A DNA stretch of 63,573 bases, counting the filler, from Reclinomonas americana ATCC 50394 (lineage: Eukaryota), in NCBI GenBank assembly GCA_048213135.1. It is 35 parts of 35 records of this genome, joined end to end, with 100 filler letters (N's around TTAATTAATTAA, not from the genome) between each part and the next. Parts side by side here need not be neighbours in the genome. Positions count along the whole stretch, not along the records: positions 3,797 to 5,593 come from AFZH01025197.1; positions 5,694 to 7,489 come from AFZH01025198.1; positions 7,590 to 9,382 come from AFZH01025199.1; positions 9,483 to 11,274 come from AFZH01025200.1; positions 11,375 to 13,160 come from AFZH01025201.1; positions 13,261 to 15,047 come from AFZH01025202.1; positions 15,148 to 16,934 come from AFZH01025203.1; positions 17,035 to 18,820 come from AFZH01025204.1; 27 more parts are not named here. One strand, given 5' to 3'. Made by a program: the position numbers and the translations under genes. Shown here one piece after another: positions 4,066 through 62,237 of this stretch. Below the pieces are notes generated by a model. That model searched no databases, had not been told where the DNA came from, and worked only from the letters and a program-made list of their open reading frames with translations. Positions within the stretch are counted from its first letter, which is position 1, and every line of letters starts with the position of its first letter.

Positions 4066-5562
4066 TTACGGTGGAATGTCGAAGAGTGGTAGTGCGTGTT
4101 CTCGCCATTCGTCGTCGAAGCGGCGCTTGCCGGCCTCGGCTGCACCCTGTCGTAGCCGCGCCAGTCGCTTGTCGCCTTGTTGGCCGCTGAACAGCAGCTC
4201 CTGTGTGTGTGTGTGTGTGGCGATGAGTGAGTGTCATGGCAGCTGTGCACGTGAGGAGAATAGTGGGATGCAGGCAGGTACCAGCAACTGCTCGGCCAGC
4301 TGCTCGGCATCCACAAACGTGAGGCCGTTGACGTCTTCGCGAATGAGCTCGTGGATGCTGTGTGTGTGTGTCAGGAGGTGAGCAGGTAGTGAGTGACTGT
4401 TGGTTGTGTTGGCGGTGTGTGCACGCAACGCCTTGTACTTGAGGGCCAGTGCCGGCAGGCTGGCGCCCATCATGTCCACCACCTTCATCGGCAGATCGAC
4501 GGCGGACGAGCTGGCGTGCAGCGACACAGCCCAGATCGCACGCGCCGAGCAGGCGCGGATAGTCGCCGGCCTCGAGCCACACCATGAGCACCTGCACAGC
4601 GTTCCACTCCATGCGGCGAATCTCGCGCTCGTAGTGCGACTTGAGCGGGCCGCGACCGGTGATAAAGGCCACCAACTGCGGTCCGGCCGCGCCACCCAAG
4701 CCGTCGGAGCTGAGTCGGTGGTCCACCCGCTGCAGTGCCTCCAAATACACGGACAAGTCCTCGTCGGCCGTGTACGACGTGCTGGTGACAATGCAACGAG
4801 GCGGTCGCCGCGCAGCGCCCGACAAACGCTGCAGCAGCTCGTTGGCTTCGAGCTCGGGCAGGCGACCACAAAAGAACTCGGCCGGGCAGTCGCGCACCAC
4901 CACCGGCTCCACCTTCAGTCCCCACTGTGCAATCATATCCTGCCGCATCGCCTCCGACACGCACATGCGATCGTCGGCCAGGCGGCCGCCAAAGGTGACC
5001 TCCAGCACCGTTGCCAGGCGCACCACCCAGTGTTTCTGAAGAAAAAAACCAAACAAACTCGGTAATGAGCACAACGCGGAGTCGACAGCTAGTGGCCAAA
5101 GGTATTCGTACTTTGGAGCGGAAGCGCATGGCCAGCATCGAATGCGTGTAGTTGTGCCAGTCGACGACCAATCGCGCACCGCGCAGCCGCGACACGACAT
5201 AGGCAACCATGACGTAGGGAATGGCCGGTGGATTCTGCACAACAACAACGCGCAGGATCAGACCAGCACAACACTCCCCCTGGTCCCTTGGCGACGACAA
5301 CGCACTTGCACGAGGATAAAGTCGGGCTTGTGGGCGACAAAGAGCAGCACGAGAAGCGCCGAGATCACATGCAACACAATCCGAACCGGCGCCAGCAGCA
5401 GAAACAGGAGACGCGCAAACCACGACTTGTCCTCGCTCTCCGCTGCCTGATCGCCACCAGGCTTGCCACTGCGACGCCCAGGCACCAGCCACGCGCCAAT
5501 ATCCGGCAGAGTCACCAGACGGATGTGCTCGTGTGATGCCACGCGTTCGTGAGGAGCAGGTC
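4066..5562 (-). CDS. ALG1: Chitobiosyldiphosphodolichol beta-1,4-mannosyltransferase, 5'-partial, 5 exons, one apparent frameshift near 4530
   Basis: Motifs VQNPPAIP, VDWHNY, VTSTSYTADED, ITGRGPLK, WLEAGDYPRLLGACDL, SLHASSSAVDLPMKVVDM, IHELIREDVNGLTF. Stop TAA at 4066-4068. Confidence 0.93.
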
Positions 5563-5730
5563 CTGTGAATGTTGGTGTGTGTGTGTGAGAGAGNNNNNNN
5601 NNNNNNNNNNNNNNNNNNNNNNNNNNNNNNNNNNNNNTTAATTAATTAANNNNNNNNNNNNNNNNNNNNNNNNNNNNNNNNNNNNNNNNNNNNTATCAAT
5701 CCGGATGCGGCCTCCAAAGGAGGACACGCT

Positions 5731-6357
5731 ATGCCGATCGAACATCAGCAACGTGACGAGCGTCCCGCCTGGAACGCGGGTCGCCTTATCGGGCCCAAGC
5801 CGCCGCTGAAACCTCGTCATATTTGGGCGATCCGAACGCGACTGCAGCATGATCAGCGCGTACGAGACCTCGCCATGTTCAATCTGGCGATCGACAGCAA
5901 GTTGCGAGGCTGCGATCTCGTTCGCTTGCGGATCAGCGATGTCGTGCTGGGCGGCACGGTCAGACTGCGGACCTCGATCATCCAGCAGAAGACAGGTCGG
6001 CCAGTGCCCTTCGAGCTGACCGACCCGACGCGGGAGGCCTTGACCGCTTGGCTCAGGCGTCGACCATCCGGCGATGCTGACTGGCTCTTTCCTAGCCGGA
6101 GCCATAAAGGCGATCACGTCACCACCCGCCAATATGGGCGCCTGCTCGACGACTGGGTTTCGCTGATCGGGCTCGACCCCGCTCTGTATGGGACCCATAG
6201 CCTGAGACGGACCAAAGTCGCGCTGATCTATAAGCGGACCGGCAACTTGCGAGCATGCCAGCTCCTGCTCGGCCATTCGAAGTTGGAGAGCACGGTCAGA
6301 TACCTCGGCATCGAGGTCGACGACGCCTTGATTCTCTCTGAACAGACCGACCTTTGA
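5731..6357 (+). CDS. Short tyrosine recombinase/phage integrase family protein (catalytic domain only), bacterial
   Basis: 208 aa with R (KLRGCD), K (QQKT), HxxR (HSLRR), H (LGH) and Y (VRYLG). Shine-Dalgarno AAGGAGG just upstream. Confidence 0.93.
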   Translation: MPIEHQQRDERPAWNAGRLIGPKPPLKPRHIWAIRTRLQHDQRVRDLAMFNLAIDSKLRGCDLVRLRISDVVLGGTVRLRTSIIQQKTGRPVPFELTDPTREALTAWLRRRPSGDADWLFPSRSHKGDHVTTRQYGRLLDDWVSLIGLDPALYGTHSLRRTKVALIYKRTGNLRACQLLLGHSKLESTVRYLGIEVDDALILSEQTDL

Positions 6358-6581
6358 AGAGGCGCCTGGCGGCAGGGCTCACGCAGCCGCTGGGCGCGCC
6401 TTCGTGCTAAACGAGCCCGTTGGAGTGAATCTGCTTGAGCAACAGATCCGTCGTGACAGCGGCGCGGCGACTGGATTCCGGCGCAATGCCGAGCAATTCC
6501 GCACTACCTTTCGATGCACTAAATTCTTTCGTGAAACTGGGGCCGGCCGGCGCGCCGAGGACAGCAAGGAGAGAGCTTCCG

Positions 6582-7031
6582 ATGCTCAATTTGATCCTGC
6601 TTCTCGCGTTGGTCGCATCGGTATCCGTTGTGATTGCTGTGCTCGTCGTCCGCTCCTTTCCGAGTGGGTCCGAAGTCCGCCGTCGTTTGGGCGCACTGTC
6701 GTTCATGATCATACCCTGGGGTCTTATGATCCTCTCGGGCCCTTTCATGATCGACCATCATGCGGCCGGCACGGAAATCCGCGGATGGATGATAACCGGC
6801 CAGTTCACGTCCATGGCGCTTCTTTGTGGAATTGCGGCAATCGGCATCGTTCGGGCGCGGGGTGCGAGGCGGTTCGCATCGGTGATCGGCGGCGCCAATA
6901 TCATCCTGGTCTTCCTGTTGGTCTGCGTCAGCGTCACGATCATCGAGCCCGGTTCCGAGCAAGGCCCGACGGCAATCAGAGAACAGAGCGCCGTCCACTC
7001 ACAGCAGCCGGAGCCGATCCGAAGGCCATAG
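6582..7031 (+). CDS. Hypothetical membrane protein (~4 TM), bacterial
   Basis: AAGGAG upstream of ATG 6582; four hydrophobic segments in MLNLILLL...PIRRP. Confidence 0.6.
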   Translation: MLNLILLLALVASVSVVIAVLVVRSFPSGSEVRRRLGALSFMIIPWGLMILSGPFMIDHHAAGTEIRGWMITGQFTSMALLCGIAAIGIVRARGARRFASVIGGANIILVFLLVCVSVTIIEPGSEQGPTAIREQSAVHSQQPEPIRRP

Positions 7032-7147
7032 CGCACAGGGTCATGATCGATCGCGCACGGCAGGATGCCGATCGCAATGCGATGCAATCGGCATCAATTG
7101 CCTGGGCCGGCACCGGCACGGCATGCTGGCCGCTCAAGGAGGCGGCG

Positions 7148-7489
7148 ATGAGCGTTTGGAGTGATTGGCTCGACAGGTTGCATCCCATCGTCCAACGCCT
7201 TCGGCAACCGAGGCCGACGGGCATGCCGGCGCCGGACCTTTACCCACCGGAGCCATACGATCCACCCCTCGGGCCGGACATCATCGCGCTCGCCTCCGTT
7301 CTCGATTGGCGATCGTCGGGCTTGCAGGCTGCTCTGCGCGGCGAGGATTGGCCCGAGGCGCCGGCTTCGTTCGGGGCGCTCCATGAGCGCGCGGAACGTT
7401 CCGATCGGTTTCGCGAGGCCTGTCAGGAGCATCGTCGGAGCCCCTCGCAGCTTCTCCTCGGCGCGCTGCATATGGTTGCCTTCGGCCGA
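7148..7489 (+). CDS. Hypothetical protein, 3'-partial, bacterial
   Basis: AAGGAGG at 7136-7142 before ATG 7148; frame open to the contig end. Confidence 0.5.
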
Positions 7490-9572: not shown

Positions 9573-11167
9573 CAACACTGTATAATGCCCGTGCGACGCC
9601 AGAATGTGCAGCACAGTTCGCTTTTGTGTGTCGACGCGCGTCAAAGCGTGAGGACTCTCTTTGAGGAGGTCCAGCAGGATTTCCGGATGCTTGCATGACG
9701 CCGTCATGTGCAACGGCGTCCGACCGCGTCCGTCCGGCAGCTAATCATCACAAGGGCAGTCAGCATAAGCACGTGCAGCGCGGTGATTACAAAGACACAC
9801 ACCTCCAGCGACTCGGGCCACCATCGCAAGATGGACACCAGCATGTCGATGGAGCGAGCCGAGGCAGTCGCCTTGTGCATCACTGTCTGGTGACCCACAT
9901 CGGTTGCCTGCAACAACTGTGGCCTCTGTTCGTACAACCACGTCAACCTGCACGACGGGAATGAACAACAACATGCGCACAGGAAACGCAAACAGAAGCA
10001 CGGTCAACGCAACACTGGCAGGTGGCCCCACGAAGCCGCAATGTGGAACGCCGTCCGCCCCTTCTTGTCGCGCGCCTCGACCAGCTCAGGCCGGTGGCGC
10101 ACAAGCGCCTTGCACGCCTCCAAGTGACCCCAAGACTGCAGGTGAAAGTTCACTCGTCAGGGGGAGAGAGACGGAGAGGAAAAAAAAAAGAGTGATTGAC
10201 ACGCAACAGCAGCATGATGAAGGTGCGAGCGACCATGCTCGTCCCTCAAGTCCGCTTGCTCTGGATAGTGGGTGAGAAGCATCTCGACCACGTTTGTACT
10301 GTGCTCGATGTGAGCGACACCATACGCACGGTCGGGGGGAAGGAGAGGAGATAACAGTCACACGCACCGACCCCAGCACGCGGCAGTGGACAGTGGAATG
10401 CGACCACTCTCATCCTTCGTCAGCAGCAGCGACGGGAACCGCTGTGCCAGTGATTCCACCATCTCTGCGTTGCCCCAGCTGGCCGCCACTGCCAGCACCG
10501 ACTGATCCTTGCCGTCCATCAAATCTACCAGGTTCGGTTGCGAGTCCAGAATAGCATCAACGACCTGGAACAACAAAAAAAACATGAGACAACAACGATG
10601 GTGGTGTGGTGGCAGTGCACAGCAGAAACCCACCGCCATGCGGTTGTGTGCAGCAGCCCAGTGTAATGGCGTCTGCAAGAGATTGGCATCGCGTTGCAAC
10701 AGGAGCTCCTTGCGGTAGTGGATGAGGCGCCGTGTCATGGCAGGATGTCCGCGTTCGGCCAGCCAATGCAACGGTGTCACCTTGTCCTTGCTCTTCTCGC
10801 AGTACGTCAGATCGTTCTTGCACTCCAGCAGCAGATCAACAAAGAACGGTCGGTCCTGCTTCAGCTCGGACCAGTGCGAGAAGCACTGTCCGGCCTCCGG
10901 GAAGAGATTGAGCCACTTGACGAGCGCCGTGCTGCGATCATCCATGGCGGCACCCTCGACTGGCGCCCACTCGGCACAGCGCGCAAGCAGGCGGGAGACA
11001 CGCGAGTAGCGCGCACCGGCCTCCTTCGGGGCGTGCACCGCAAACACCGAGTACAGTCCGAGAGGGAGCAGCATCTTGACCACGGTGTTGGTGGTCTGTG
11101 GACCCAAGGCCGCCGCAACATTCTGACTTGAAAACATGAACGAGCACGCATGGAACAGCAGTTCCGG
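9573..11167 (-). CDS. Ankyrin-repeat protein, internal multi-exon fragment
   Basis: TPLHWLAERGH, QTPLHWAAAHN, RTAFHIAASWGH, RTVLHILASHGH joined by short GT-AG introns. Confidence 0.88.
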
Positions 11168-17077: not shown

Positions 17078-18293
17078 TCAACGCCGCTTGCAGATGGACG
17101 GCTTGGCCAGCGGGCCGCGATACATGTCGCACACGTGCTGCACGAGATCGTCGGGCTTGGGGCTCTGGCAGTTGGAGGTGCCCCATACGCACCACAGCCT
17201 GCATCGCACGCACACACACACAACATGAGATACGTACTGGGGAGGCATGCAAGAAGGGCACAGCGTCGCAACTCATTGTTGACGGTAATGGTGGCGCTCC
17301 AGTCCCACCCCTGGCTCTGCGTCCATGCGGCACTACGTGCAAGCAGGCCACCGCCCTGCGGACCATACGCGCACGTCGCTATCTCATCCCTGTGCATGCA
17401 CGCGCGATGAGACACTCCAACAAACTCATTTCCCTGCGACCAAGTGCACGCAACGGGGACAGTCCCACTTCAGCCGCGCATTGCAAGACGGCCGGCGGGA
17501 ACTTCTTCGGCAGATCCTCCTCAGGCATCGGATCACGAGCATCGCTGACACACTGCATAAAGGTGAAGTAGGCGCCGAGCAGCGCATTGTTGGGCACCGA
17601 CAGCAGGCGATTCTGCACACAAATCTCCAGCAAATCGCCCACGACATCAATGGTGCCACTGAAAGCAAGTGAGCAGCCGGCGGGCAAGACAGGCAGGCAG
17701 CGCATATACACATACCCATCACTCCAGAATCCATAAGGCGCAGTGGCGTTTTGCCTATTCAAAACAAAACGTGATTGCTGCTGTATGAGTACGGATTCCA
17801 AAATCCCTCGTGTGATTGCTGCTGCTGGTGGTCAGGCCACACTCACCGAGCCATGTAATCCGAGCGGTAGATCATAATGGGCGCAAGTGCAGTGGCCATG
17901 GGGAAGAACTCCAGAGTAAAGTTGCTGCATAATAACATAATGGATGCTGTCGTCATCACACGAGCGGATAGTGAGAGCACATGGCGTGCGTTGGTTACCT
18001 CCATGCCGTGCAGATGCTCATCATAAAGGCATCCACTGTGTGTGTGTGTGTGTGAGTGGAGAGTGAGAGTGTGAGAAGACCGAGACACACACTTGACTGT
18101 GTGTTTTTTTGCACTCACCAACAACGCGCGGATCGTCGGCGAATGGACGTGACTTGTGGTGGTGGTGGTTGCGGCCTTCCTCCTCCACTAATGCGCCACC
18201 ACGCAGGAGAGATGAGTGGTCAGTCACATCGAGTGTGGCGGCCAGTGTGGCGAGCAGACACAGTGCGAGAAGCAGCAGGTGAATGCGCATCAT
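17078..18293 (-). CDS. Secreted GILT-like (thioredoxin-fold thiol reductase-like) protein, multi-exon, apparently complete
   Basis: Signal peptide MMRIHLLLL...; spliced VVVDAFMMSIC..., GDLLEICV, FMQCV, IATCAYGPQGGGLL..S...T, ATITVNNELWCV follow the fungal/protist GILT pattern from recall. Confidence 0.55.
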
Positions 18294-26479: not shown

Positions 26480-28238
26480 GCCGAGGCGGCAGGCAACGCC
26501 GATGGTGGTGCGTCGTCAAGCACGACCACGGCCGCCGCATCCGCCGACGGAGCGGAGGGCGGAGCAGAGCCGGATCAGAAGCGTCGAAAAGTGGAGCGTT
26601 GCGTGAGAAGATGGGAAGGAGAACCTTTGCGCGCCGCTCTACCTCACACGCTGTCGGCGCAGCGGAAAAGGCGAAACCCAAGTACCCGATGGCGGACCAT
26701 CTGCTGGAGCACGAGGGGGAGCACGCGGACGGCAACTGGCCGCAACCCGTGCAAGAGTTCATTGTGGCCGATCATGCGGTCAGCGACATGCTCATGGTGT
26801 GGGACTTTTGTCAGACATTCGGGTGCGTGCTGGTGATGCTGCTCGCTTTCTGTGCCAAGTAGGCGAGTCACTCACTCACTCATCGTCGGTCCGACGTGAA
26901 CAGCGACCCGATCAAGTTGTCGCCGTTCAGTCTGAACATGTTTGAGGAGGTGCTGTCGCTGCCACCGGTCAATCGTCCCGAGAATCCCGCCGTGTACTCG
27001 TGTTTCGTGAACATACGGCGCGCCAGTGTTGTTTGTTCTTCATGTCGTCATGGCTCACACATCGGTGCAGATATCTCCGACGACGACGTGTCGGCTGCTC
27101 GCACAGCTGGCACGGAGAGCGCAGCAGCGGATTCTGCACCCGCTGCTAATGGTGGTGGTGGTAGCAGTGGTCACGATGAAGCTGCACAGGCGACTCGCAA
27201 GGCGGATGCCAGGTTGCGCGCGCGCCGACAGAAGCTGAAGGAGCGCAAGTTGCGTGCACCTCGACAAGGAGGTTGTCCATTGACCTCTGCTTGACAACGT
27301 GAATGTGTTGCAGGGCGGCGGAGGCTCGCAAGGCAGCCGCACAGGCCAAGAAGAAGGCACAGGAAGCGAGTCGACCGAAGGTTGAGTGATATGAATCGTG
27401 GGTGTCTTGAATTGTTGATGCTGACTGCACGCGGTAAACAACAGCGGAGCGGACGCAGCAGCAAGAACCAGCAAGACGATGTGCGACGCAGCAGTCGTCA
27501 ACGAGGACAGCGAACGCGCTACACCGAAGTGTCGTCGGAATCGGAGGAGCAGTCGTTCCAGTACGATGGTGCGACGAGAGATGCATGTGAGACAATGATC
27601 TGTTGGCTGTCGGTCTCACGTTGTTGCTGTTGTTGTTGCGCACGATGCAGAGGACTCCAGCGAGGATGAATTCCAGCCGGAGAAGCCACCGCGCGAGGCA
27701 ATTCGCGACTTTCGTTATGAACAGGCGTCGTCTGGCGAATCGAGTGATCTGTTTAGCGACGGCGACGAGGAAGATAAAGTGATGGAGGATGTGGAGGACG
27801 AAGAGTTGCGAACCTCTGCGTTACCTTCCATGTGCCTCCCTGTGTGTCTCATCTGTCGATCAGTGCTTTCCCGGTGGTGTTCAAGGAGAAGACACTGTCG
27901 GTCGACGTACGGCGCAGTTCACGCACTGCCACTCGAGCATCCGCTAAAGCAGTGGCCGCGGCGGCGGCAAATAGCGAAATGTTTGTTCCGCGGTACTCGA
28001 CACGTCGTCGTACGGCGCTCGAGGACGATGATTCGGGAAGTGCGAGTGCCGATGCCGACACGGACGGGATGCAAGTCGACGGAGACGATGCCAGCGACGA
28101 TGAGGAGAAGGATGAGGACCTGGAGGACGAAGACGACGGCGGTGACATGGACATGGACGAGGATGACGACGACCTCGGCAGTGATTTCGACAACGATTCA
28201 GATGTGGTTGCGTGTGACGAGGGCTTGTTCTTGTTCGT
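26480..28238 (+). CDS. DDT-domain chromatin protein fragment with acidic region, multi-exon
   Basis: KYPMADHL...WPQP...VSDMLMVWDFCQTFG/DPIKLSPFSLNMFEEVL resembles a DDT domain; Asp/Glu-rich region follows. Confidence 0.65.
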
Positions 28239-29526: not shown

Positions 29527-30122
29527 TCAGTGCGTCTTCTTCTTCTTGCCACTCTGATCTCCCGGACTTGGCGGCAATTCCAGGCCGCTGGTGTACGGTG
29601 CCGGCGGGCCATCCGCTGCGCAATCACCCAAGACAACAACGTGAGCCATACGCACACACAAAGAAAGGTGCTGGCGCTGCACGCAACGAGGAGTGCCAGA
29701 GAACGAGCCGGCGTTGCGCGGAAGCGCATCGCCCGGATGCTGGCGCTTGGGAGTGACAGAAGCCAGCGTGCTGCGAGCTCTGCGAGTAGACAGTTGTCAG
29801 TGAAGAGCGCACATGTGAGCAATCACGAGCGACGAACCGAATGGTGCGCTTGAGGATTTTGTGGTAGTGGGCGAACCTGTGAGGCAAGTGGTCAGGAGCA
29901 CGATCCCTCTCTCCCTCCCTCACCCACCCACCCTCCAACTTCCGCCTTCAAACAAACACGCACCAGTAGATATTGAGCAGGTAGAAGAAGAACATCGGCA
30001 CATACAGCATCCAGTGCGACAGCTTGTCCACGTGGCCAAACCAGCCGACGTTGAACAGCTTGAACATGACATAAAGGTGCAGCACAAAGCGCGTGACAGC
30101 GAACGACACGTACTGCATGGCC
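29527..30122 (-). CDS. ER membrane protein, TLC (TRAM/LAG1/CLN8)-like C-terminus, 5'-partial
   Basis: SFAVTRF...FFFYLLNIYWF..; three introns lead to a C-terminal KKKKTH-stop (KKxx ER-retrieval motif). Confidence 0.55.
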
Positions 30123-30222: not shown

Positions 30223-31027
30223 CCACGGTGGCGAGCACGTCGGGCGTGATCGAGATGCGGTCGATGTCACCGGCCTGGAACGCGAGCACCGACGCCTGCG
30301 GATCCTTGTAGATCTTGAGCTCCACACCGTCGAGTTCGATCTCGTCGGCGTTCCAGTAGTCGGGGTTCTTCACGAAGCTGATGCTCTGGCCGACCTCGTA
30401 GTCCTCGAGCAGGAACTGCCCTGCGCCGACCGGCTCGTCGAGCCATGTGCCGGGCTCGTAGTCGGCGGGCAGGATGCCGGTGTTGTTGCCGGCGAGCAGG
30501 CGGGGGAAGTCCGAGAACGGGCGGGCGAGCGTGAAGGCGACCGAGCCGTCGCCGGCATCCGATACCGCGTCGAGGATGCCGGTGAACGCGCTCTTCGCCG
30601 GGGACACGCTGTCCTCTCCGATGATCGCCTCGAACGTCGCCGCGACGTCGGCGGCGGTGACCGGGGAGCCGTCGTTGAACTGGGCGCCGTCCCGGAGGGT
30701 GAAGGTCCAGGTCAGCCCGTCCTCGGATGCCGACCACTCGGTGGCGAGACGGGGCAGCGCCTCGCCGTCGGCCGTGAAGCTGACGAGCTGCTCGGTGACG
30801 AGTCCCGCGATCAGCTGCGCGTCGCTGTCGGCGACCGTCAGCGGGTCGATCTCTGCTCCGGGCTCGGTGATGCCGATGCGGTAGACCGCTTCGGCCGACC
30901 CGTCGGTGTCGTCACCGGATGCCGTGGTGGTCGCGCATCCCGTGAGCGCCAGCAGGGTCGCGCTGACGGCGGCCGCCGAGACGAGCGTTCGCCGACGGCG
31001 GGCGGGGTGGGAGGTGAGAAGGGTCAT
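30223..31027 (-). CDS. ABC transporter substrate-binding lipoprotein, family 5 (peptide/nickel type), 3'-partial, actinobacterial
   Basis: Signal peptide with lipobox LTGC; PRLATEWSASEDGLTWTFTLRDGAQFNDGSPVTAADV; PVGAGQF; KNPDYW; GAGG RBS. Confidence 0.92.
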
Positions 31028-31061
31028 GTGCGGTGTCCTCGGTTCGGGTGCGGGCGTCGCG

Positions 31062-31347
31062 TCAGCGCGGCAGGAGCTCGGCGGCATCCACCTGGACGCG
31101 CTCGGAGTAGAAGGCGACGTACCCGGCGATGGTCTGCAGGTAGTCGAACGGGCTCGGGTAGGACCAGGCGACGTCGGTGCCGGGCTCGGTCCCGAGCGCC
31201 CAGTAGTCGTCGGCGTCGCCCTTGACGGGGCAGTGCGTGCGCGATGCGGTCGGCTGCAGCAGATCCCAGTTCACGTCCTCACGGGGCAGGTAGAAGCGGT
31301 CGGCGTGATCCGTCTCGTGCAGCACGATGGCGCGCGTCGAGTCCGCG
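31062..31347 (-). CDS. DUF427 family protein, 5'-partial
   Basis: LHET....FYLPREDV, THCPVKGDA.YW, DVAWSYP.P, IAGYVAFY are the DUF427 signature. Confidence 0.88.
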
Positions 31348-48317: not shown

Positions 48318-50012
48318 GCGCGGTCTCTGCTGCCGACACGCCACCACCGCCGCCACCATCGACACGATTGGCGAACAGTCGCGATCCCCGCAGCGTGGTG
48401 CTTGAACTCCCAGCAGCATACAACGCACCGCCCCACAACTGTGCCCGACCACCACTCAGTGTGCTACTCACGTGTCAAACCACGTCCCCAGTCCCTGCGT
48501 GGTCACATGTCCATCGGAGGTGGCCGCCAAGTTCCTCTGGAACTGGATTGTGGACGATGTAACGTAGGCTGATTGTGAGACGTATATGCCGCCTCCGGCC
48601 AGCGTGGCATTGTTGGCAAACATGGTGCAGTTGGCAAGAGTGATCAATGACAGGCCATCAGCGTACACGCCGCCACCATCTGCCGTCGCCTGATTGTTGC
48701 TGATAGACGTGTCCGTCAGCGTATGATTGCTGTTCTGATCGGTGAACATGCCACTACCGAATGGGGCAAAGTTGCCGACGATGAAGGCAAGACGAGGACA
48801 GCAGGTCGGCAAAGAAGCCACCACCAAAGTGAAACGCCTTGTTGTTCTGCACACTGGAACTACCCGACAAGGCAAGAAAGGCGCTGGCGGTAAGAAATAC
48901 GTCGCCACCGCTAAAGGCCTGATTGCCGTCCACAACCGATTGCGATTGAATCTGCAAGTGCACTTGTTCGGCACGCACTGCGATGCCGCCACCATACAGT
49001 GCAAAGTTGCTGGAGACTGTGGCGTTGCTGATTGTGGCTGTGGTGGCCACCTCATTCAGCAATACTCCACCGCCATAGCCGCTTGGCGATAAGTTGGAAG
49101 TGACGAAAGAGTCCACGATCTTGCAGCCTTGTCCACTCATGGCCACACCACCGCCACCAGTATAACGGGCGACGTTTCTTGTAACTTGAGAACCAGCGAG
49201 GAGAGACTGCGTTCCCACCAGCGCACCGCCACCAGTAACGAGCTCGCCAGACACTGAGTTGCTTGAGATGAAACAGCCAGTGGCCGAGCTCGACGCGTCG
49301 AGCAGCATCGCACCGCCTCCGTGAGAGCGACCAGCAATGACGAGCGGCACCGACGATTGCACGGAGTTGCCAGTCAAGGTTGACGAGGAAACCGCGGCGC
49401 CGTCGACGGCGAGCAGCGCACCGCCACCGCAGAAGCTGCCGGAGGAAAATAGTGCATTTCCAGCACCAGCATCCTCCACGCGGTTGTCGACAAACTGAGA
49501 CCCGGAGAGTGATGATGGCGATTTCACCAGCAGCACGGCACCGCCGCCGTTGTGGTTGCTGCCTTGCCCGTTGAGGGTGTTGCTAAGGCCGCCCACACCG
49601 TCACCGAGAGATCGGTTGCCTATGAATGTGCAATCGGTAACATTGAATGCGCCCTGAGAGCGAAGAAATGAATGGTGAGTGAGTGGATTGGTGAAGGGTG
49701 AAGCGAAACTGGTGCAACTGTCGATGTCGACGGTGCCGCTCCACCACCGTTGAAACCGCCAAAGGAGGCACCAATTGTGCTGTTGAAGCCACCAGCTCCG
49801 TTGTGCGACGATGTGTTGTTGAGAAATCGCGACTGGCTGAGCGCCTGCAAAGTGGGGGTGAGAGACTCTGCAACGGAGGACGCACTCGATGACAAGTGAG
49901 CGAACCAGCGCGGATGCAGAGTTTGGGGCAAAGAAGACCAGCAGAGCGCCTCCACCGGAGAATGTTGAAAGGCTGCTTCCCGATGAAGTGTTCCCGCTGC
50001 CTCCATTGCCTA
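48318..50012 (-). CDS. Pmp-like (GGA[ILV]/FxxN) parallel beta-helix repeat protein, internal fragment with introns and apparent frameshifts
   Basis: Many GGGA(V/L)L, F..N and N.A..GGGIY repeats; two intron-like interruptions near 49650-49720 and 49850-49890. Confidence 0.75.
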
Positions 50013-50242
50013 TGTCAAAGATGAGCAGAAGTACAGGGTAATGCTTTACGTGCATGATGAGAGTGAGGATCACCATTGCCNNNNNNNNNNNNNNNNNNNN
50101 NNNNNNNNNNNNNNNNNNNNNNNNTTAATTAATTAANNNNNNNNNNNNNNNNNNNNNNNNNNNNNNNNNNNNNNNNNNNNTCCTTCCCACTCTCTCTTTC
50201 TGTGTGCGCTCACCCTCTCTCTCTCTCTCTCTTTCCTCTCAG

Positions 50243-51975: not shown

Positions 51976-53094
51976 TTATAAGTCGGAGAAGAAATTGCTC
52001 TTCACGCTCGACCAGTTCTTTTGCGGCCGTCGCCGTGCCGCCGAGTCGTCATCGTGCGATGACGAAGCTGCAGCTGCGGCTGCGTCTACCTGTACTGCTG
52101 ATCCGTCGTCACCACCAGATTCTCCTCCCGCAAACGCGTCGGCTCCCGAAGCCGAGGCGGGCTCATCACCACTGGCCTCCGCAGCTGCTGCTGCCGAGGC
52201 CTCTGCCGAAGCATACACGTCCGTAATGTCCCAGAAGCGCACCGTGCGGTCGTGCGAAGCACTCGCGACCCACTGTCGGTCGTGTGACAGCGCCAGTGCC
52301 TCCACGGGAAACTCGTTGTGCTCACCGGCAATGCCAAGCACTCGATTCGGGAAGAGCGAGACCACTCTGCATGTGCTCATGAGTACGTGCGTGTATGCGT
52401 GTGCGCACCAAGAGGTGTGAGCCAGCGACCTACCTTATCAAACCATCGCTGCAGCCTGTGCACAAGTAGCGGTCCGTGAGTGCCACCATGGCGTCCACAG
52501 AGCCAGGATGTCCCTGCATTTGATCGATTGGCAGGCCCCACTCGTTCCAGCGGAATATGTACAGATTGCCACTTTGCGACGAGCACACGACATTGCTGCC
52601 GGCCTGCGACAACAACAAGAGTCGGTTACTCGCACACACCGCTCACGACGCGGCACACAAACCGATGCCAACTCGATGGACAGGAAGTCGTCGTCGGATG
52701 AGTGTGAGCCGTTGATGAAGCGCTGCGTTTTGAGATCGTACGCGGTCAGACAGCCGTCGCCACTCGAGCTGATCGCCACGCATGAGGTGCAACAAAGAGA
52801 AAAAAACAGAGGTGCGCAGCGAAGCACGCACCACACCAACACTCCTTCTTCTGGATTGTACCGCAAGCCAGAGACGTAGTCGCCGTTCTGTTTGAATCGC
52901 ATGGCATACCCGCTCTGCATCCCCGCCGTGCGTGGATCAATCAACAGCCAAGGGAGCACGACGAAAGCAGTGGGGGAAAAGACTGCCTACCTGCCGCATG
53001 TCCCACACTTTGATCTCGCCTCGATCGTCACCCGAGGCCACCGCAAAGTCCTCGCAGAACTCCAGCACATTGACTGCCTCCTTGTGTGCTTTGC
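51976..53094 (-). CDS. WDR55: WD repeat protein 55 (Jip5-like), 5'-partial, multi-exon
   Basis: SGDGCL, GHPGSVDAM, CTGCSDGLIR/VVSLFPNRVLG..GEH.EFPVE.L..SHD..W.ASASHD, acidic linker, terminal NFFSDL. Confidence 0.85.
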
Positions 53095-53236: not shown

Positions 53237-54491
53237 ATGTTTGACGAGCCAAAGCCCCTGGGGTTCTCCTTTGAGAACTGCAAGCGCAATGCGCTGTTGG
53301 CCTCACGCGGCATTGTCGTGGGCGCTGGCAGTGGCAGCGGCAGTGCCACTGGCCCTGTCATGCGCAAGACCGGCACCACCATTGTCGGTGTCATCTACAA
53401 GGTGAACACAGCAGCAGCAGCGAGGCACAGAGGAGAAGAGGAAGGAAGGAGGGAGGCAGAAGAGGGAAAGGGCGCGCGCGCGTGTGTGTGTGAGATGGCG
53501 CGCAAATTGGGTTTACACGCACAGAGAGAGACAACACCGCCACTTGCATGAACACACACGCACGCACTTGTTGTCTCAGTGCACTCGCACGGCTTGCTCA
53601 TGTCGCCTTGCGTGTGCATGGCAACACACAAAAGTTGTCTCCTGTGTGTGAATTTGATCATTTGTGTCTTTCACATGCTCTCTCTCGCTCACCCACTCTG
53701 TCACTCACTCACGCACAGGATGGCGTCGTGCTTGGAGCCGACACGCGCGCCACGGAGGGCCCCATTGTGGCCGACAAGAACTGCAAGAAGATCCACTATT
53801 TGGCGCCCAACATCTACTGCTGCGGCGCCGGCACGGCCGCCGACACGGAGAACACCACCGACTTGATCTCGTCGCAGCTGACGTTGCACCGACTGACCAC
53901 CAACAAGGAGTCACGCGTGTCCACGGCCTGCACGCTGCTCAAGCGCATGCTGTTCAACTACCAGGGGCACGTCAGTGCGGCGCTGGTGCTCGGCGGTGTC
54001 GATGTCAAGGGACCGCACTTGTACTCGATTCACCCGCACGGCTCGGTGGATGCGTTGCCGTACGTGACCATGGGCTCGGGCTCGTTGGCGGCCATGGCGG
54101 TCTTCGAGGCCGGCTACAGGATGGATATGGCGGAGCAGGAGGCGATTGACTTGGTGCACCAGGCCATTAGCTCCGGCATCTTCAACGATCTCGGCTCCGG
54201 CTCCAATGTCGACGTCTGCGTCATCACCAAGGTCGGTGTTGGGAGACAGCTCTCGCACGTGCAATGAGAGTGCTCATTGTCTGTGTTTTCGCGATGCAGG
54301 GCGACGTCAAGTACCTGCGTGGGTACGACAAGCCGAACGGCGACCAGGTGCACGTGCCACGCATTGGCAACTACGTGTACCCGCGCGGTGCGACGCCAGT
54401 GTTGACAAAGAGGACGGAGTCGGTGCGGCCGCCCATCCCTGCGGGCATGGCGCTGGAAGTAGAGGATGGTCCAGCACCGATGGACTTGTGA
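53237..54491 (+). CDS. PSMB7: 20S proteasome subunit beta-2 (PSMB7/Pup1); exons 53237-53401, 53719-54231, 54300-54491
   Basis: [10 protein letters not shown] propeptide, KTG/TTIVG catalytic Thr, [50 protein letters not shown]. Confidence 0.97.
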
Positions 54492-55051: not shown

Positions 55052-56694
55052 GCCGCCTCTCTGGCCGCCAGCTTGTGGCCGTACACTGGCGTGTCGATTG
55101 CGCCACCGTTGCCGCTGAAAATACTGTGACCATCCAGAGAATCACTCATCTCCCGCGCCAGCCAGCCGTCTTCGACGCACGGTGCGGTCGAGTCGGTTGG
55201 ACTCAACGGTTCTAGCTTGGCAAAGTGCGACAGCTTGTTGCGCACCGGCGGCGGCAACTGCGACGCAGATCGCCCTCCGTGGCCACCACCACTCGTCATT
55301 CGCTTCTCGCTCGCCAAACGACCAATCATCGCCAGCTGAGCAGCGGTGGGCGACAGCACCACCGACGACAGAGGCGACATTGACGAGGAGGAAGGTGACA
55401 CGGCCGTGGCGGGAGGCGGCGAGGTGACAGAGCCTGCGATTGACGACGTTGGCGATATCGGTTGCATGGAGCGTCCGCGATTGCGCATCACTCGCTCCTC
55501 CGCGCTCTGACCCAACAGCTGCAGTGCGTGTTTCACGCTTCCTGTGCCCCCCGCAGTGTCGTCGTACAGTGGTGCGCTGACGGGTTTCACCACAGTCGAC
55601 CACGTCATCGGTTGTAGCAGGTGCACCGTGGCCGCGGAGCGCGCGCCACCGCTCACAGTCGACGAGGAGGCGGCGTACGACGAGGATGCGTTCGTAAACG
55701 ACGATGATGCAGGCCGGCGACCCGACAGCATTGCCGATGAGTAGCCAGACAGAGAGCTGCGTGCCGAGTTCCCGCTGCTGCCGTGAACGCAAGCACAACC
55801 AATCCGTAACATGAGCATTTGCGGAATACACCACCACGCGCTTCTGGCACCTTGACGCAACTCACGAGCCGATATCCGCGCCGGCTCTGCACGCACTGAC
55901 GGCGGTCGCCAGTCGGCGGCCGTCTCGAGCGGAGCCAGCGGCGACTGCACAGGTGCGTACAGGAGCTGACCTGGGGGCGGCGCCCCCACCGACCGCAAAA
56001 CGTCATGGTGGCGCTCCACAAACGGACGCAACAAGCCGCCACTGGGCGGACGCGGTGGCAGCCACGACATTGTGCGACCGTCTCTGTCATACACACACAC
56101 ACACACCAACAGCATCATCAGCACCGTGGGCACGCCGCGACACGTCGAGTCGTGAACATTGCGCAACTCTTGCGACGCCGGTGCTGCATGTTGAGGAGGC
56201 GCCTGGTCTTCACCAGCACTCCGTTCTTGCTCGGCGGCTGTGGGCGTCGGACCGCGCCGTCGCAAGAAGCGCGCGTACGACGGCCGCACAGACACCGCTC
56301 CACCAGCAGCACCACTTGCACTGGAGGTGGAGCCAGAGCGCGGACGAATCGGACTAACACTCGCCTTTTGATGGTGATGCCGATGAGGCGTGCGACTCTG
56401 CACCGCACTGCCCGCACGCTCCAACGGCGGCGGCATCGACACGGCAGAGCGCGAGGCCAGTGGCGACGTCACGACTAACAGATCCTCTTCATCGGCCACC
56501 TGCGCGAACGAGGAAGGGTCAGCGCACACGAACATCTTGTTGTGTAGTAAGGTTCCACAAACCGGGTTCGACGAGGACACCAGAACGTCTTTTGGTCTGC
56601 GGTCGCGCGTTGCTCGCGGATGCACAAATGCCACTGGCGCGGCGGTGGCGGGCGGCGTCGACGATGATGTTGGTGTTGTTCGATATGTTCTCAT
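55052..56694 (-). CDS. Ser/Pro-rich low-complexity hypothetical protein, 3'-partial
   Basis: Long open frame with likely in-frame introns (e.g. 56084-56167); no recognised domain. Confidence 0.5.
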
Positions 56695-56909: not shown

Positions 56910-57427
56910 ATGGTGTGCGGGGTGAATCGCTGGGGCGACTGCGCGAAGTACTCGTCCACCTTGTCGGCGGCCATTCCGGAGAGCAGCGCCTTGCCGAGGC
57001 CCGTGGCGTGCAGGGGCCCGGTGCGACCGGCCATGGCGAACGACTTGGGGGCGAGCGCTCCCTCGAAGTTGCAGAGGTAGGTGAAGGAGAAGCCGCTGAG
57101 CTCGGCGACGTTCACGCCGATCTCGATCTTCCGGGCGAGGTTCTGCGCGATCTGCCGCGATGCGCGGAAGATCGGCGACCCGTTCAGGGCGATCGTGCCG
57201 AGCGAGACCGCCGCGGGTCCGAGGCGGTAGAGGCCCGTGCGGCCGTCCTGGATCACGAACTTCATTCGATCGAGGGCGGACATCATGCGCGAGACCGTGG
57301 ACTGGCCGAGTCCGGTGAGAGTGCACAGCTCCGAGACCCTCAGTTCACCCGACTCCTCGGTGAAGCAGGCGAGCAAGGACATCGCCCGTTCGACGGTCTG
57401 GGTGCCGCCCACCGATTCCGATGCCAT
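56910..57427 (-). CDS. IclR family transcriptional regulator, 3'-partial, actinobacterial
   Basis: QTVERAMSLL..F, GLGQSTVSRMM HTH, YRLGP, PLHATGLGKALL; GGAGGAG RBS. Confidence 0.93.
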
Positions 57428-57535
57428 CGTGACTCCTCCTCCATACGGTCGCCGCTCTGCGACGCTGCGGCTCGTCACCGCTGCCAGTCATCCTAATGAG
57501 AGAAATGGCGGCGAGCAACACAAATGTGGGTGTCT

Positions 57536-57571
57536 TATGCATTTTGTGGATTTCGCATCCGCAATGTGGTT
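57536..57571. promoter_or_regulatory. AT-richer divergent promoter region with imperfect palindrome ATCCGCAATGTGGTT, possible IclR operator
   Basis: Lies between the divergent iclR and permease genes; operator role is inference. Confidence 0.3.
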
Positions 57572-57655
57572 GACTGGCGGCACGTCGACGTCGACGACTG
57601 TGACGACGACGCGCAGGGCCCCGTCCGGGGTCGTCCCTACTGGAAAGCGACTGCA

Positions 57656-58588
57656 ATGCAACAAGCCATCCTCGAGCGGCCCGCGAAGAGCGAGCAGGTC
57701 GAGCCACGTTCCGGGCGGCGCTCCACGCTGGGCGCGAAGGACCGCACCTTCGGTTTCATGATCGCACTTCCCGCGGTCCTCCTGTTCCTCGTGATCGCGA
57801 TCTTCCCCCTCGTGTCGAGCATCGGCACCAGCCTCTACGATCAGTCCCTGCTGCGCCCGGAGCGCACATTCGTGGGGCTGGGCAACTACGCCGCGATCTG
57901 GGACGAGTTCTTCGCCCGCCTCGGCACGACGCTGGTCTTCGCCTCGCTGTCCACCGTCTTCCCGCTCGTGCTCGGCGTCGCCCTCGCATTGCTGCTCAAT
58001 GCACGCCTGCGCGGGCGGAACATCCTGCGCGGCGCCCTGATGCTGCCGTGGCTGCTCCCCGGCGTCGTCGTCTCCTTCCTCTGGGCGTGGATCTTCAACG
58101 ACAGCTACGGCGTCGTCAACCACGTGCTCGCGATCCTCGGGATGCCGGAGGTCAGCATGCTCGGCAACCCGGTCGGTGCGATGGCCGCGGTGGTCATCGC
58201 CAAGACCTGGCACTCGTTCCCCTGGATCATGGTCGTCGCACTCGCCGTGCTCCAGACGCTGCCGAGCGAGCAGATCGAGGCGGCCACGATCGACGGTGCG
58301 ACACGTGCGCAGCGCTTCCGGTACATCTCCCTGCCGCACATCGCCGGCCCGGTCACCCTCGTCGCGGTCCTCGAGTTCATCTACAACTTCGGCAACTTCG
58401 ACACGATCTTCGTCATGACCGGGGGTGGCCCTGGCAACTCGACCACGACACTCGCGGTCAGCCTCTACCACCTGGCCTTCGGCAGCTACGAGCTCGGGAA
58501 GGCCTCCGCGATGGGCGCCCTCTGGCTCGTCCTCCTCGCCATCATCTCGAGCGGCTACCTGCTCCTCAACCGACGACTGGAGAAGTGA
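57656..58588 (+). CDS. Carbohydrate ABC transporter permease (MalF-like)
   Basis: FVGLGNY, LPWLLP.VV, EAATIDGA...QRFRYISLP (EAA motif), MTGGGPG. Confidence 0.95.
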   Translation: MQQAILERPAKSEQVEPRSGRRSTLGAKDRTFGFMIALPAVLLFLVIAIFPLVSSIGTSLYDQSLLRPERTFVGLGNYAAIWDEFFARLGTTLVFASLSTVFPLVLGVALALLLNARLRGRNILRGALMLPWLLPGVVVSFLWAWIFNDSYGVVNHVLAILGMPEVSMLGNPVGAMAAVVIAKTWHSFPWIMVVALAVLQTLPSEQIEAATIDGATRAQRFRYISLPHIAGPVTLVAVLEFIYNFGNFDTIFVMTGGGPGNSTTTLAVSLYHLAFGSYELGKASAMGALWLVLLAIISSGYLLLNRRLEK

Positions 58589-58665
58589 TGCGCCGTTCCC
58601 GCGACATCGGTGAGTCGATCATCCGCCCCCACCTGTCCATCCCCGGGCGCGTCCTGCTCCTGCTG
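58588..58665 (+). CDS. Start of the next gene, probably the second ABC permease (TGATG overlap), 3'-partial
   Basis: Its ATG overlaps the upstream stop; typical operon order. Confidence 0.6.
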
Positions 58666-58765
58666 NNNNNNNNNNNNNNNNNNNNNNNNNNNNNNNNNNN
58701 NNNNNNNNNTTAATTAATTAANNNNNNNNNNNNNNNNNNNNNNNNNNNNNNNNNNNNNNNNNNNN

Positions 58766-60480: not shown

Positions 60481-60647
60481 GTCACTCTCCCTCTTTCTCG
60501 CACACACACTTTTCCTCTCTCNNNNNNNNNNNNNNNNNNNNNNNNNNNNNNNNNNNNNNNNNNNNTTAATTAATTAANNNNNNNNNNNNNNNNNNNNNNN
60601 NNNNNNNNNNNNNNNNNNNNNCGTGTGTGTGTGTGTGTGCGTGACTG

Positions 60648-60684
<37 letters not shown>

Positions 60685-60945
60685 GCGCACACACACATGA
60701 GATGCACATGCGGAGTATTGCAATCATCAATCATGCATGCACACACATGCAACCTCACCCCTCTCTCTCACACACACACTCACTCGCCCTCCTCTCCACC
60801 ATCACACACAGAGAGAGCACGAGACAAGAGCACACAAGTCACCTTCCCTCACACCACGCGACATGCCAAACACACACACGCACGCACGCACTCCATCTCC
60901 CTCTCTCCAGCGAGTTGACTTGTGGGCATGCCACACACACTCACC

Positions 60946-61399
60946 AGCCGCCAACACAACATGGACCAGCAGCGCCGGGATTGCATCGAGTCGCCACTTG
61001 ATGTCGCGTTTGCTCAGCAAATGTGCCGTGTTTGACAATGAGGAGGAAGAGGAAGAAGGCGAGTCGGACGACGATGCAGAGTGCTTCCAGTCGCGAATGG
61101 GGTACGAGTGGCGACCAGAGGAGCTCATTCGCGCTCCTCTTATCTCCTGACAGACGGATAGGACGGAAGAATGAGTTGTCCTGCGGAAGTGAGACCTTTG
61201 CCAAGTAAAGGTTGCCAGGAAAGAGGGCCCACAGGGTTCCAACTTGGCGAATGATGCCGTACGAGGTCAACACTGCCACTTGTCGAGCTTTCTGCTGTGC
61301 AATAGTCGGAAGAACTTGCAACTTCAGCTTCGTGCACAACGTGCTGGGGTGCATGAGATAAAACGGGCGAGAGAAGCACAACAGCTGATCCACGTCCAT
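60946..61399 (-). CDS. Hypothetical protein, first exons
   Basis: ATG at 61399, an intron near 61148-61195 and donor GTGAG near 60945 give a continuous frame; weak support. Confidence 0.3.
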
Positions 61400-61712
61400 A
61401 GTACCTCCGCCGTGTCACTACTCGGTCATCAGTTTGACGATCAGATCTCCTGTTGCCTTCCTCCCTCTCTGCTGAGGCATTAGACTCACAATCTCTCTCT
61501 ACCCCCTCCTCTCTCTCTCTATGTGTGTGTGTGTGTCTGTCTGTGTATCTGTCTGTCTGTCTGTCTGTCTGTCTGACTGTGGATCAGTCTTGTCTCCCTG
61601 TCTCGCACTCTGCATCACACATCAACGGCATCCCTCGACCCTTGACTGCTTCACAAATCTCCACGTCAACATGATCAAACAAGCAACTCATCCCGTTTGA
61701 TCGTCATTCCAT

Positions 61713-62237
61713 TCACTTGTTCGCCTCACTGACCTCTACGCACACCGGCGTCTCAAACGACTTGCCATGCATCCACTCCAGATCCTCACCGTCGTAAGTC
61801 AACGCAGGCGCAATCTCAAAAGTGTCTGTGACAGCAACAGCCAACTTAAGGGGAAGAGGATTAAAGTGCATCAGGAAGAGAAATGCAGGTTCACCTTGTC
61901 CACGCACGCTTCCACCGGCGCATTCGGCCCACCGACGATGCAGTGCGCTCAAGTGCTGGCGGCACGTGGTGGGATTGTCGGCCGGCTGGCTGTCGTTGTT
62001 CTTCAGAGGCGAGAACTCCTCCTCGCGTGACACCTCCAGGGTGAGGAACTTGGCAGGTGCGCACGACTCGAACACGTCAAAGATGAACTGCTCAAACTTG
62101 ATGCCCTGCGATGCGGCAAGTCAGCACAGTTCAGCTTCCGGAGTGCGCAAATAAGGGACGCAACATTCTCACGCGGCGGATCGACTCGGTGGCCCGACTC
62201 GTCAATGTACGGGATCTTCTTGCGCGCAATGTGGAAC
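61713..62237 (-). CDS. UAP1: UDP-N-acetylglucosamine pyrophosphorylase, last three exons
   Basis: FHIARKKIPY, N/GIKFEQFIFDVF, EVSREEEFSPLKN, EIAPALTYDGEDLE. Confidence 0.95.

Follow-up and report, generated by a model that had tools for sequence, protein, structure and literature searches.

A recurrent GTTGCGT 5' splice site in short introns of Reclinomonas americana and its possible reading by U1 in a shifted register

The DNA examined here, called the window in what follows, is a stretch of 63,573 bases from the genome assembly of Reclinomonas americana ATCC 50394 (GCA_048213135.1), and the element in question is a recurrent intron start within it, GTTGCG, which is most often followed by T. 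The window is made up of 35 separate short contigs arranged from longest to shortest, 32 of 1,755–1,798 bp and three of 1,054–1,125 bp, with linkers between them that consist of TTAATTAATTAA flanked by 44 N on each side (for example, at 1799–1898 and 3697–3796). Many contig ends carry GA, GT, CA or ACGT microsatellites, and no gene is complete. Most of the contigs belong to an intron-rich eukaryote, with a G+C content of 53–61% and introns mostly of 56–97 nucleotides (nt), values to which those of Mastigamoeba (60.7% G+C, introns of 137 bp on average; PMC8136499) are no obvious match; the closest protein matches to the window's proteins are ~81% identical, and self-comparison of the window revealed no duplicate contigs.

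About four contigs are bacterial-like (30223–31347, 56910–58665, 62477–63573 and 5694–7489). High G+C at third codon positions (0.87–0.95) and Pfam families of bacterial type (SBP_bac_5 with DUF427, IclR with an ABC permease, and DUF6541) are found among them, and the contig with a phage integrase (domain at 5695–6354) has a lower third-position value than the others, 0.72. The origin of this last contig is less certain than that of the others, which probably represent bacterial contamination of the assembly; all of them were excluded from every count given below.

Sixteen 5' splice sites (donors) were fixed by protein homology, by the continuity of a Pfam profile or by the spacing of ankyrin repeats, with homologues fetched for three genes and aligned to the window (by tblastn for UAP1). 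Four of these donors are GTTGCGT, preceded by T, C, T and T, and the other twelve comprise ten that follow G and two that follow A. The four introns, and five further ones of the fixed set that serve for comparison, are as follows, with the exon–intron boundary marked by a slash.

4358–4429, minus strand: GTTGCGT intron of an ALG1-like gene, C/GTTGCGT...CAG, 72 nt, in frame and stop-free
62106–62164, minus strand: GTTGCGT intron of UAP1, after T, 59 nt
9948–10013, minus strand: GTTGCGT intron of an ankyrin-repeat gene, after T, 66 nt, also present in the ab initio run
10136–10207, minus strand: GTTGCGT intron of the same ankyrin gene, after T, 72 nt, with no in-frame alternative GT, absent from the earlier note on this DNA
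5235–5305, minus strand: comparison intron of the ALG1-like gene, A/GTGCGTT, unshifted after a base other than G, the join ...FILVQ/NPPAIP colinear with homologues
47684–47744, minus strand: comparison intron of UAP1, G/GTTTCGT, extra-base-like after G, join colinear with homologues
47419–47482, minus strand: comparison intron of UAP1, G/GTTCATT, join colinear with homologues
10299–10367, minus strand: comparison intron of the ankyrin gene, G/GTGCGTG, the unshifted form of the word
52604–52662, minus strand: comparison intron of WDR55, G/GTTTGTG, with Pfam PF24796 positions continuing from 187 to 188–190 across the junction

In the ALG1-like gene, all five homologues inspected have a 24-residue gap exactly at the 72-nt segment, and its removal gives the colinear join KYK-A-IHELI. 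The sole in-frame alternative GT lies 9 nt upstream and would remove three conserved residues. The other donors of this gene that are supported by homology are A/GTGCGTT (5305), A/GTACGAA (5111) and G/GTACCTG (4281). Between ...LLGACDLG and VSLHASSS..., near 4526–4530 on the minus strand, the ALG1 frame jumps by one base in a place without intron signals, which is most likely a one-base indel error of the assembly.

In UAP1, the upstream tblastn match of the homologues stops at 62165 and the downstream match resumes at 62105 with GIK, the last three residues of an NGIK motif conserved among the homologues listed, so that the 59-nt intron lies exactly between them. Three other donors of the gene were fixed, namely G/GTTTCGT (47744), G/GTTCATT (47482) and G/GTGAACC (61894). 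The gene is split over two contigs, 46452–48217 and 60622–62376, both on the minus strand, which correspond to homologue residues of about 126–342 and 352–495 and are probably neighbours in the genome. Metagenome relatives of the UAP1 exon are all at most 56% identical, too distant for judging the conservation of the intron.

In the ankyrin gene, once the three introns with donors at 10367, 10207 and 10013 are removed, the motif A[AS][SC]WG recurs at an exact spacing of 34 residues across them. The junctions fall at residues 243.7 (10367), 274.0, inside AASWG (10207), and 314.7 (10013) of the spliced product. A reading in which the GTTGCGT introns start one base later, as TT...AGN, and the G stays exonic was considered and rejected; at ALG1, UAP1 and 10013 its product would be identical or synonymous, and at 10207 it would change AASWG to AAAWG. 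The remaining fixed donors come from two genes. In WDR55, G/GTTTGTG and G/GTAGGTC were fixed by Pfam continuity, and G/GTAGGCA and G/GTGCGTG by arithmetic. In the proteasome beta-2 gene, on the plus strand, G/GTGAACA opens the first intron, which at 317 nt is unusually long (53402–53718), and the second intron (54232–54299, plus strand) has a donor that is ambiguous by homology, either G/GTCGGT (54232) or T/GTTGGGA (54238).

About a quarter of the checkable introns (4 of 16 fixed donors) therefore open with GTTGCGT, while the word is carried by only 64 of the 7,024 GT sites (binomial p = 1.1e-5). As a plain word, GTTGCG shows no overall enrichment, with 67 sites against 57.7 ± 8.7 expected from shuffles. 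Its association with intron starts was examined by a scan that took each position of the eukaryotic contigs, on either strand, as a possible intron start and used no donor information. To pass, a position had to be followed by a branch-like YT[C/G/A]AY and a YAG 45–130 nt downstream, both flanks had to be open with a positive codon score, and the read-through had to be broken. Against a background of 2,060 passing positions in 104,954 (2.0%), GTTGCG ranked first of the 3,574 hexamers that have at least five sites each, with 9 of 64 sites passing (p = 4.5e-6; 0.016 after Bonferroni correction); GTGCGT ranked second (8 of 87).

A second test made no use of codons. A branch-like motif and a YAG ending 52–100 nt downstream accompany 21 of 61 GTTGCG sites, compared with a background of 16.3% (p = 4.4e-4), and 12 of 65 sites of the reverse complement. 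When the sites are divided by the +7 base, the count is 15 of 30 for GTTGCGT and 6 of 31 for GTTGCG[A/C/G]. Codon scoring of the flanks alone did not separate GT-AG from decoy dinucleotides. Additionally, GTTGCG was the commonest donor (18 of 114) in a self-training ab initio gene finder seeded with GT and AG only, whose catalogue, given its high false rate, served as a lead and for position counts only. Overall, GTTGCG(T) is very probably a genuine and abundant second class of 5' splice site. The earlier note had proposed such a recurrent donor from 14 cited sites, all of which are present at the positions and on the strands named, and its proposal is borne out by the donor-blind scan and the fixed junctions, though not by any enrichment of the plain word.

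In total, 22 candidate GTTGCG introns and two partial sites were recognized in the window, ten beyond those previously listed. Removal of the intron restores a colinear protein for four of the 22, those of ALG1, UAP1 and the ankyrin gene, and the other 18 have open frames at most. Twelve cases had been put forward as firm in the earlier note. Three of these are now fixed to the residue (ALG1, ankyrin 10013 and UAP1), and five more have open frames, sensible peptides and an independent ab initio call (17272, 17454, 26206, 27805 and 44100). The rest are weaker, with an ambiguous donor in the Fes1-like gene, five codons left in one GH99 gene (GH99a), and signals only in the TLC gene and a second GH99 gene (GH99b). 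The candidates beyond the fixed junctions are listed here, with those previously proposed first, followed by the new ones, the two partial sites and two possible exceptions that follow G.

17199–17272, minus strand: GTTGCGA intron, GILT-like gene, after A, 74 nt; donor-blind pass and ab initio call; open frames of 65 and 39 codons; sensible peptide
17390–17454, minus strand: GTTGCGT intron, GILT-like gene, after C, 65 nt; ab initio call; open frames of 125 and 118 codons
26131–26206, minus strand: GTTGCGT intron, after C, 76 nt; ab initio call; flank codon scores of 10.2 and 11.3
27805–27863, plus strand: GTTGCGA intron, gene with a DDT domain, after A, 59 nt; ab initio call; open frames of 68 and 124 codons
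44100–44166, plus strand: GTTGCGT intron, MPP6-like gene (named so in the earlier note; no Pfam match), after T, 67 nt; ab initio call; open frames of 189 and 48 codons
50398–50494, plus strand: GTTGCGT intron, Fes1-like gene, after A, 97 nt; donor-blind pass; donor ambiguous
42727–42802, minus strand: GTTGCGT intron, GH99a, at a contig end, after T, 76 nt; upstream exon ending ...FYYAWYGN, with only five codons (PENDG) after the intron
29616–29687, minus strand: GTTGCGT candidate, TLC gene, after C, 72 nt; signals only (donor, branch-like motif CTCAC, CAG)
43190–43248, minus strand: GTTGCGG candidate, GH99b, after T, 59 nt; signals only (donor, CTCAT, CAG)
665–720, minus strand: new GTTGCGT candidate, Arm-repeat gene, after T, 56 nt; ab initio call; open frames of 116 and 115 codons
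7844–7909, minus strand: new GTTGCGT candidate, TPR gene, after C, 66 nt; ab initio call; flank scores of 6.5 and 9.5
26598–26662, plus strand: new GTTGCGT candidate, after C, 65 nt; donor-blind pass and ab initio call
27249–27313, plus strand: new GTTGCGT candidate, after A, 65 nt; donor-blind pass and ab initio call; in competition with G/GTTGCGC at 27213
32943–33013, minus strand: new and weak GTTGCGT candidate, after A, 71 nt; ab initio call only; negative upstream flank score
37594–37660, plus strand: new GTTGCGT candidate, after C, 67 nt; donor-blind pass and ab initio call; open frames of 152 and 151 codons
39544–39612, minus strand: new GTTGCGT candidate, TMEM185-like gene, after T, 69 nt; donor-blind pass and ab initio call
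39019–39097, minus strand: new and ambiguous GTTGCGC candidate, TMEM185-like gene, after T, 79 nt; donor-blind pass; the ab initio run took a GT 21 nt downstream
45448–45524, minus strand: new GTTGCGT candidate, after T, 77 nt; ab initio call; flank scores of 9.7 and 6.9
55775–55861, minus strand: new GTTGCGT candidate, after A, 87 nt; ab initio call; long open frames with a weak codon score
35289–35294, minus strand: GTTGCGT donor-like site, MCM N-terminal exon (Pfam MCM_N), after C; runs into a CA repeat and a linker, the intron being cut by the contig end
56162–56167, minus strand: GTTGCGC donor-like site, previously called probable, after A; known by its sequence only and bypassed by the ab initio run
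27213–27218, plus strand: possible exception, G/GTTGCGC; donor-blind pass, in frame, with the acceptor shared with 27249
28207–28212, plus strand: possible exception, G/GTTGCGT, inside a coding chain, with the contig ending 32 nt later; read through as coding by the ab initio run

Several of these sites are doubtful. At 50398, the ab initio run preferred another in-frame GT, 15 nt further downstream, joined to the same acceptor, and the Pfam Fes1 match lies on the downstream exon only. The frames that flank the TLC candidate (29687) read poorly, and the ab initio run modelled the region otherwise. The exon downstream of the GH99b candidate (43248) starts with Met and the upstream frame is not protein-like; this candidate is perhaps an intron in the 5' leader. 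At 56167, a trial acceptor at 56084 gives long open frames on either side, and nothing fixes the junction. Single exons were mostly without a Pfam match, the TMEM185-like exon matched no protein in a representative protein library, and the MCM and GH99-like exons gave low-complexity matches only in the PDB. A pattern scan of metagenome contigs, with either T or TT allowed, found no independent copies of the GTTGCG sites.

Two observations stand apart from the splice sites. On the minus strand at 48471–50079, an eukaryote-like contig carries a long open frame with a right-handed beta-helix and repeats of the Chlamydia PMP type (Pfam Beta_helix and Chlam_PMP). In a search for small nuclear RNA (snRNA) genes, no Rfam family reached its gathering threshold in the window and no snRNA was found at E ≤ 1; a weak match to SNORA17, an H/ACA small nucleolar RNA, lies at 3569–3689 on the minus strand (27.2 bits against a gathering threshold of 29, E = 0.39).

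The conserved positions of the GTTGCG donors suggest how the word is related to the other donors of this organism. Within the ab initio set, the GTTGCG class has T at +7 in 16 of 18 cases and G at +8 in 11 of 18, and the GT[GA][CA]G class has T at +6 and G at +7, each in 21 of 34. From these counts, H/GT-T-GCGTG (H being A, C or T) appears to be the organism's commonest donor word, G/GTGCGTG, set one base deeper into the intron. Only T serves as the inserted base, as 9 of 64 GTTGCG sites pass the donor-blind scan compared with 3 of 169 sites of GT[A/C/G]GCG (p = 6e-4). The previous suggestion of a distinct second donor class is upheld in this form, the intron side matching the common donor slid by one base with a T inserted.

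In other respects the introns that carry the word appear to be ordinary short GT-AG introns of the U2 type. The candidates are 56–97 nt long, and all 22 start with GT and end with YAG. By pattern match only, a branch-like YT[C/G/A]AY is present in 17 of the 22 (its A 7–27 nt from the 3' end) versus 10 of 11 verified other introns. U12-type introns have the donor RTATCCTT, a TCCTTAAC-like branch site and a rigid donor word, and they do not need an exon-final G. The GTTGCG class resembles them in its rigid intron-internal word and in its independence of an exon-final G, but it differs in the word itself and shares its branch-like motif and 3' end with the window's other introns. An assignment to the U12 type was rejected, the donor being GTTGCGT instead of RTATCCTT and the branch-like motifs being CTCAY or CTGAY, the same as in other introns and not TCCTTAAC-like.

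The exon base before the donor differs between the two classes. G occupies −1 in none of the four verified GTTGCGT donors versus ten of the 12 other verified donors (Fisher p = 0.008), and in none of the 22 candidates. The corresponding counts in the ab initio set are 0 of 18 and 23 of 34 (p = 8.8e-7), a comparison that is partly circular. The ten verified donors that follow G have eight different starts, GTGAAC (twice), GTAGGC, GTAGGT, GTGCGT (twice), GTACCT, GTTTCG, GTTCAT and GTTTGT, in agreement with the diversity described before. Three of these, G/GTTTCGT (47744), G/GTTCATT (47482) and G/GTTTGTG (52662), have T at +3, and +3 T is tolerated generally in this organism. Nor do all donors after other bases carry the extra T, as had been recognized; A/GTGCGT (5305) and A/GTACGA (5111) are both supported by homology.

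Coding constraints may contribute to this distribution. Among the phase-0 GTTGCG donors, six of eight follow AAT, GAT or ATT (62164, 44100, 42802, 39612, 39097 and 45524), although these numbers are small. These codons specify Asn, Asp and Ile, which have no synonymous codon ending in G. Because most of the phase-0 donors follow such codons, the GTTGCG class may mark exon ends that are unable to offer a G. In the other phases, the −1 base is the first or second base of a codon.

A mechanism that fits these features is that the same U1 small nuclear ribonucleoprotein (snRNP) reads GTTGCGT in a register shifted by +1. The intron's own first G would take the place of the exon-final G, with the +1 G pairing with C9 of U1, the +2 U left unpaired and the +3 U pairing with A7. 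GCGU at +4 to +7 would replace the bases normally read at +3 to +6, and cleavage would still occur before the first GU. In such a register the +3 T would be required because it then faces A7 of U1. The class would serve exons whose last base is not, and often for coding reasons cannot be, G. The +1 shift fits the +3 T, the conservation of +5 to +8 and the indifference to the exon-final G. The C conserved in both donor classes would have a partner if position 5 of U1 were a G, which is the case in the variant U1 of Mastigamoeba (Roy and Bowser, bioRxiv 10.1101/2022.06.08.495308). We give the shifted register about an even chance of being the mechanism, and the statement as a whole, that of a second donor class whose word is displaced by one base and which the same U1 snRNP reads in the +1-shifted register, is to our minds evenly poised between right and wrong.

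Nearest-neighbour duplex energies were calculated for two published U1 5' ends, the textbook sequence and the ACGUAC variant of Mastigamoeba, in a model that leaves pseudouridines and proteins outside. The values are as follows.

H/GUUGCGUG: −0.6 kcal/mol with the textbook U1, −5.3 with the ACGUAC variant
H/GUGCGUG: −2.3 kcal/mol with the textbook U1, −8.2 with the ACGUAC variant
G/GUGCGUG: −8.9 kcal/mol with the textbook U1, −14.8 with the ACGUAC variant

Several points weigh against the interpretation set out so far. The extra U brings no calculated gain with either U1 end. Therefore the shift alone leaves the preference for exons that do not end in G unexplained, and the earlier idea that the shifted register compensates for the missing −1 G finds no support in the duplex energies. 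This lack of gain could allow a lineage-specific RNA or protein to play a part. The exon side shows no shift to match that of the intron, with T 7, C 6 and A 5 at −1 of the GTTGCG class as against A 10, T 11, G 7 and C 6 at −2 of the common class. The −1 rule itself is marginal (p = 0.049) against the local background, since only 7 of the 66 GTTGCG sites in the contigs follow G anyway. The two G/GTTGCG sites at 27213 and 28207 remain possible donors, and the verified G/GTTTCGT donor at 47744 looks extra-base-like after G. Hence the claim that the word never follows an exonic G stands for the verified donors and the candidates, and is qualified by the local background and by the two possible exceptions. 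The gene finder returned 100–145 'introns' when run with decoy dinucleotides, compared with 114 with the real signals, so its catalogue is unreliable, and its donor model includes exon bases, which makes its −1 statistic partly circular. Finally, the GTTGCGT junctions fixed to the residue number only four.

Among the alternatives to a shifted register of a single U1, a lineage-specific snRNA is unlikely, though it has a real claim to attention. Either a U1 whose 5' end has changed or an additional U1-like RNA would be complementary to GUUGCGU, and the organism would have two pairing codes. Seven nearly invariant intron bases with no requirement on the exon are what a full-length duplex would lead one to expect, and the calculated energies do not favour the extra U with either published U1 end. 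The window, in which no snRNA gene was found, does not bear on the question directly. A single RNA working in two registers accounts more simply for donor words that differ by a one-base displacement. To our knowledge, a change at C8 of U1, which pairs with the invariant +1 G, is without precedent, and this also counts against such an RNA. Co-evolved U1 ends have precedents in Entamoeba and Mastigamoeba, but the U1 ends of Thecamonas and Mamiellales are standard despite donors of the GYGCGY type (bioRxiv 10.1101/2022.06.08.495308). In its stronger form, with two parallel donor codes and a dedicated snRNA for the GTTGCGT class, whether a retuned U1 or a further RNA of U1-like or U2-derived kind, the proposal seems to us improbable. 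If it were true, the major spliceosome would have two interchangeable readers of the 5' splice site, chosen by the last base of the exon.

It is also rather improbable that U1 reads these donors in a bulged register, in which the +1 G and +2 U would pair canonically, one U of +2/+3 would bulge and GCGU would pair as usual. UU at +2/+3 is a known bulge context, with 68 predicted human sites, or 54 after curation, given in Table 3 of PMC4856993. A T-specific extra base fits as well, since a U beside a U can bulge at either place, and the best duplex for G/GUUGCGUG is bulged or looped, at −5.9 or −11.0 kcal/mol. This register explains the +3 T and the conservation of +5 to +8, but it predicts help from an exon-final G, which should still pair with C9 and be favoured, and such a G is seen in neither the verified donors nor the candidates. 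Without the −1 G, the duplex is very weak (−0.6 kcal/mol). Were the register in use, G/GTTGCGT donors would be expected at GGTTGCGT sites in transcribed DNA.

Much less probable is the explanation that the sites are not real donors, GTTGCG having been picked among several GT sites in models made by eye or by self-training. Most junctions do have one to four other in-frame GT sites within 60 nt, the self-training finder gave as many introns with decoy signals, and 18 of the 22 candidates have no residue-level check. However, the word stands out both in the donor-blind scan and in the test without codons, in the sense orientation only, and at the four fixed junctions the alternatives would remove conserved residues or do not exist. 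Descent of the introns from an introner, a mobile intron-generating element with a fixed 5' end and a preferred insertion site, is likewise very doubtful. Introner families exist in several protists, and a constant start of 7–8 bases in about a fifth of the introns, together with their uniform short length, would suit such an origin. Against this, the 22 introns without their first nine bases share only low-complexity matches of 8–11 bases (67 hits at E ≤ 1; best E 0.013 of the ten inspected), and their length, branch-like motif and 3' end are the same as those of other introns. The last alternative, that GTGCG donors were read as GTTGCG by a homopolymer overcall in pyrosequencing, is scarcely credible and was rejected on internal evidence: the assembly does have indel errors, as in the ALG1 frame near 4526–4530, and contigs that end in microsatellites, but an overcall of a single T as two is uncommon, cannot depend on the preceding exon base (G in 0 of 4 versus 10 of 12), would not be restricted to intron starts that precede a branch-like signal, and would have to spare the unshifted GTGCGT donors of the same genes.

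If between a fifth and a quarter of an organism's introns use one fixed off-register word, selected by the last base of the exon, that organism would be a natural test system for two questions: how U1, U6 and U5 determine where the cut falls when pairing shifts register, and how coding constraints at the exon end shape the signals of the intron. Elsewhere, off-register intron starts have been described at a minor fraction of human sites and in engineered minigenes. In practice, gene finders trained on GTRAGT-like donors will miss or misplace the GTTGCGT introns of this genome. Full-text literature searches in a limited collection turned up no account of GTTGCG or GUUGCG as a donor class.

Comparison with known systems places the +1-shifted register in context. 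Human 5' splice sites are reportedly read by U1 in a +1 shifted register, a finding that is said to go back to Roca and Krainer in 2009. Shifted and bulged U1 registers have been proven in human cells (Tan et al., 2016, PMC4856993), where the validated non-canonical registers together make up ~1.5% of sites and a shifted-register test substrate, ACA/GUCAAGUAUA, also has no G at −1. The likeness to the human +1 register, as presented there, is close, with all U1 pairs moved by one position, the consensus one base deeper and cleavage at the first GU. In contrast to the ~1.5% for the human registers, four of the 16 verified donors belong to the class here; moreover, the word is almost fixed (GUUGCGU) and has U at +3. 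The human bulge at +2/+3 (PMC4856993, Table 3) is similar in that UU at +2/+3 is followed by the normal downstream consensus, but it accounts for 68 predicted or 54 curated sites, whereas the present class is routine and does without an exon-final G.

Changes of the donor consensus in other protists provide the second comparison. In Entamoeba, the U1 end AACAAAC pairs with GUUUGU, and in Mastigamoeba balamuthi ACGUAC pairs with GUGCGC donors (Roy and Bowser, bioRxiv 10.1101/2022.06.08.495308). Entamoeba resembles R. americana in its U at +3, and Mastigamoeba, Thecamonas and Mamiellales resemble it in a common donor of the GUGCG type with C at +4. Lineages of the Entamoeba and Mastigamoeba type, however, are presented there as having one shifted consensus for nearly all introns and not two classes split by the last base of the exon, and a one-base displacement is not described for them there. 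Overall, judged by these comparisons, the GTTGCGT class would be a type of non-canonical U1 register that is used at an unprecedented frequency, if the proposed mechanism holds.

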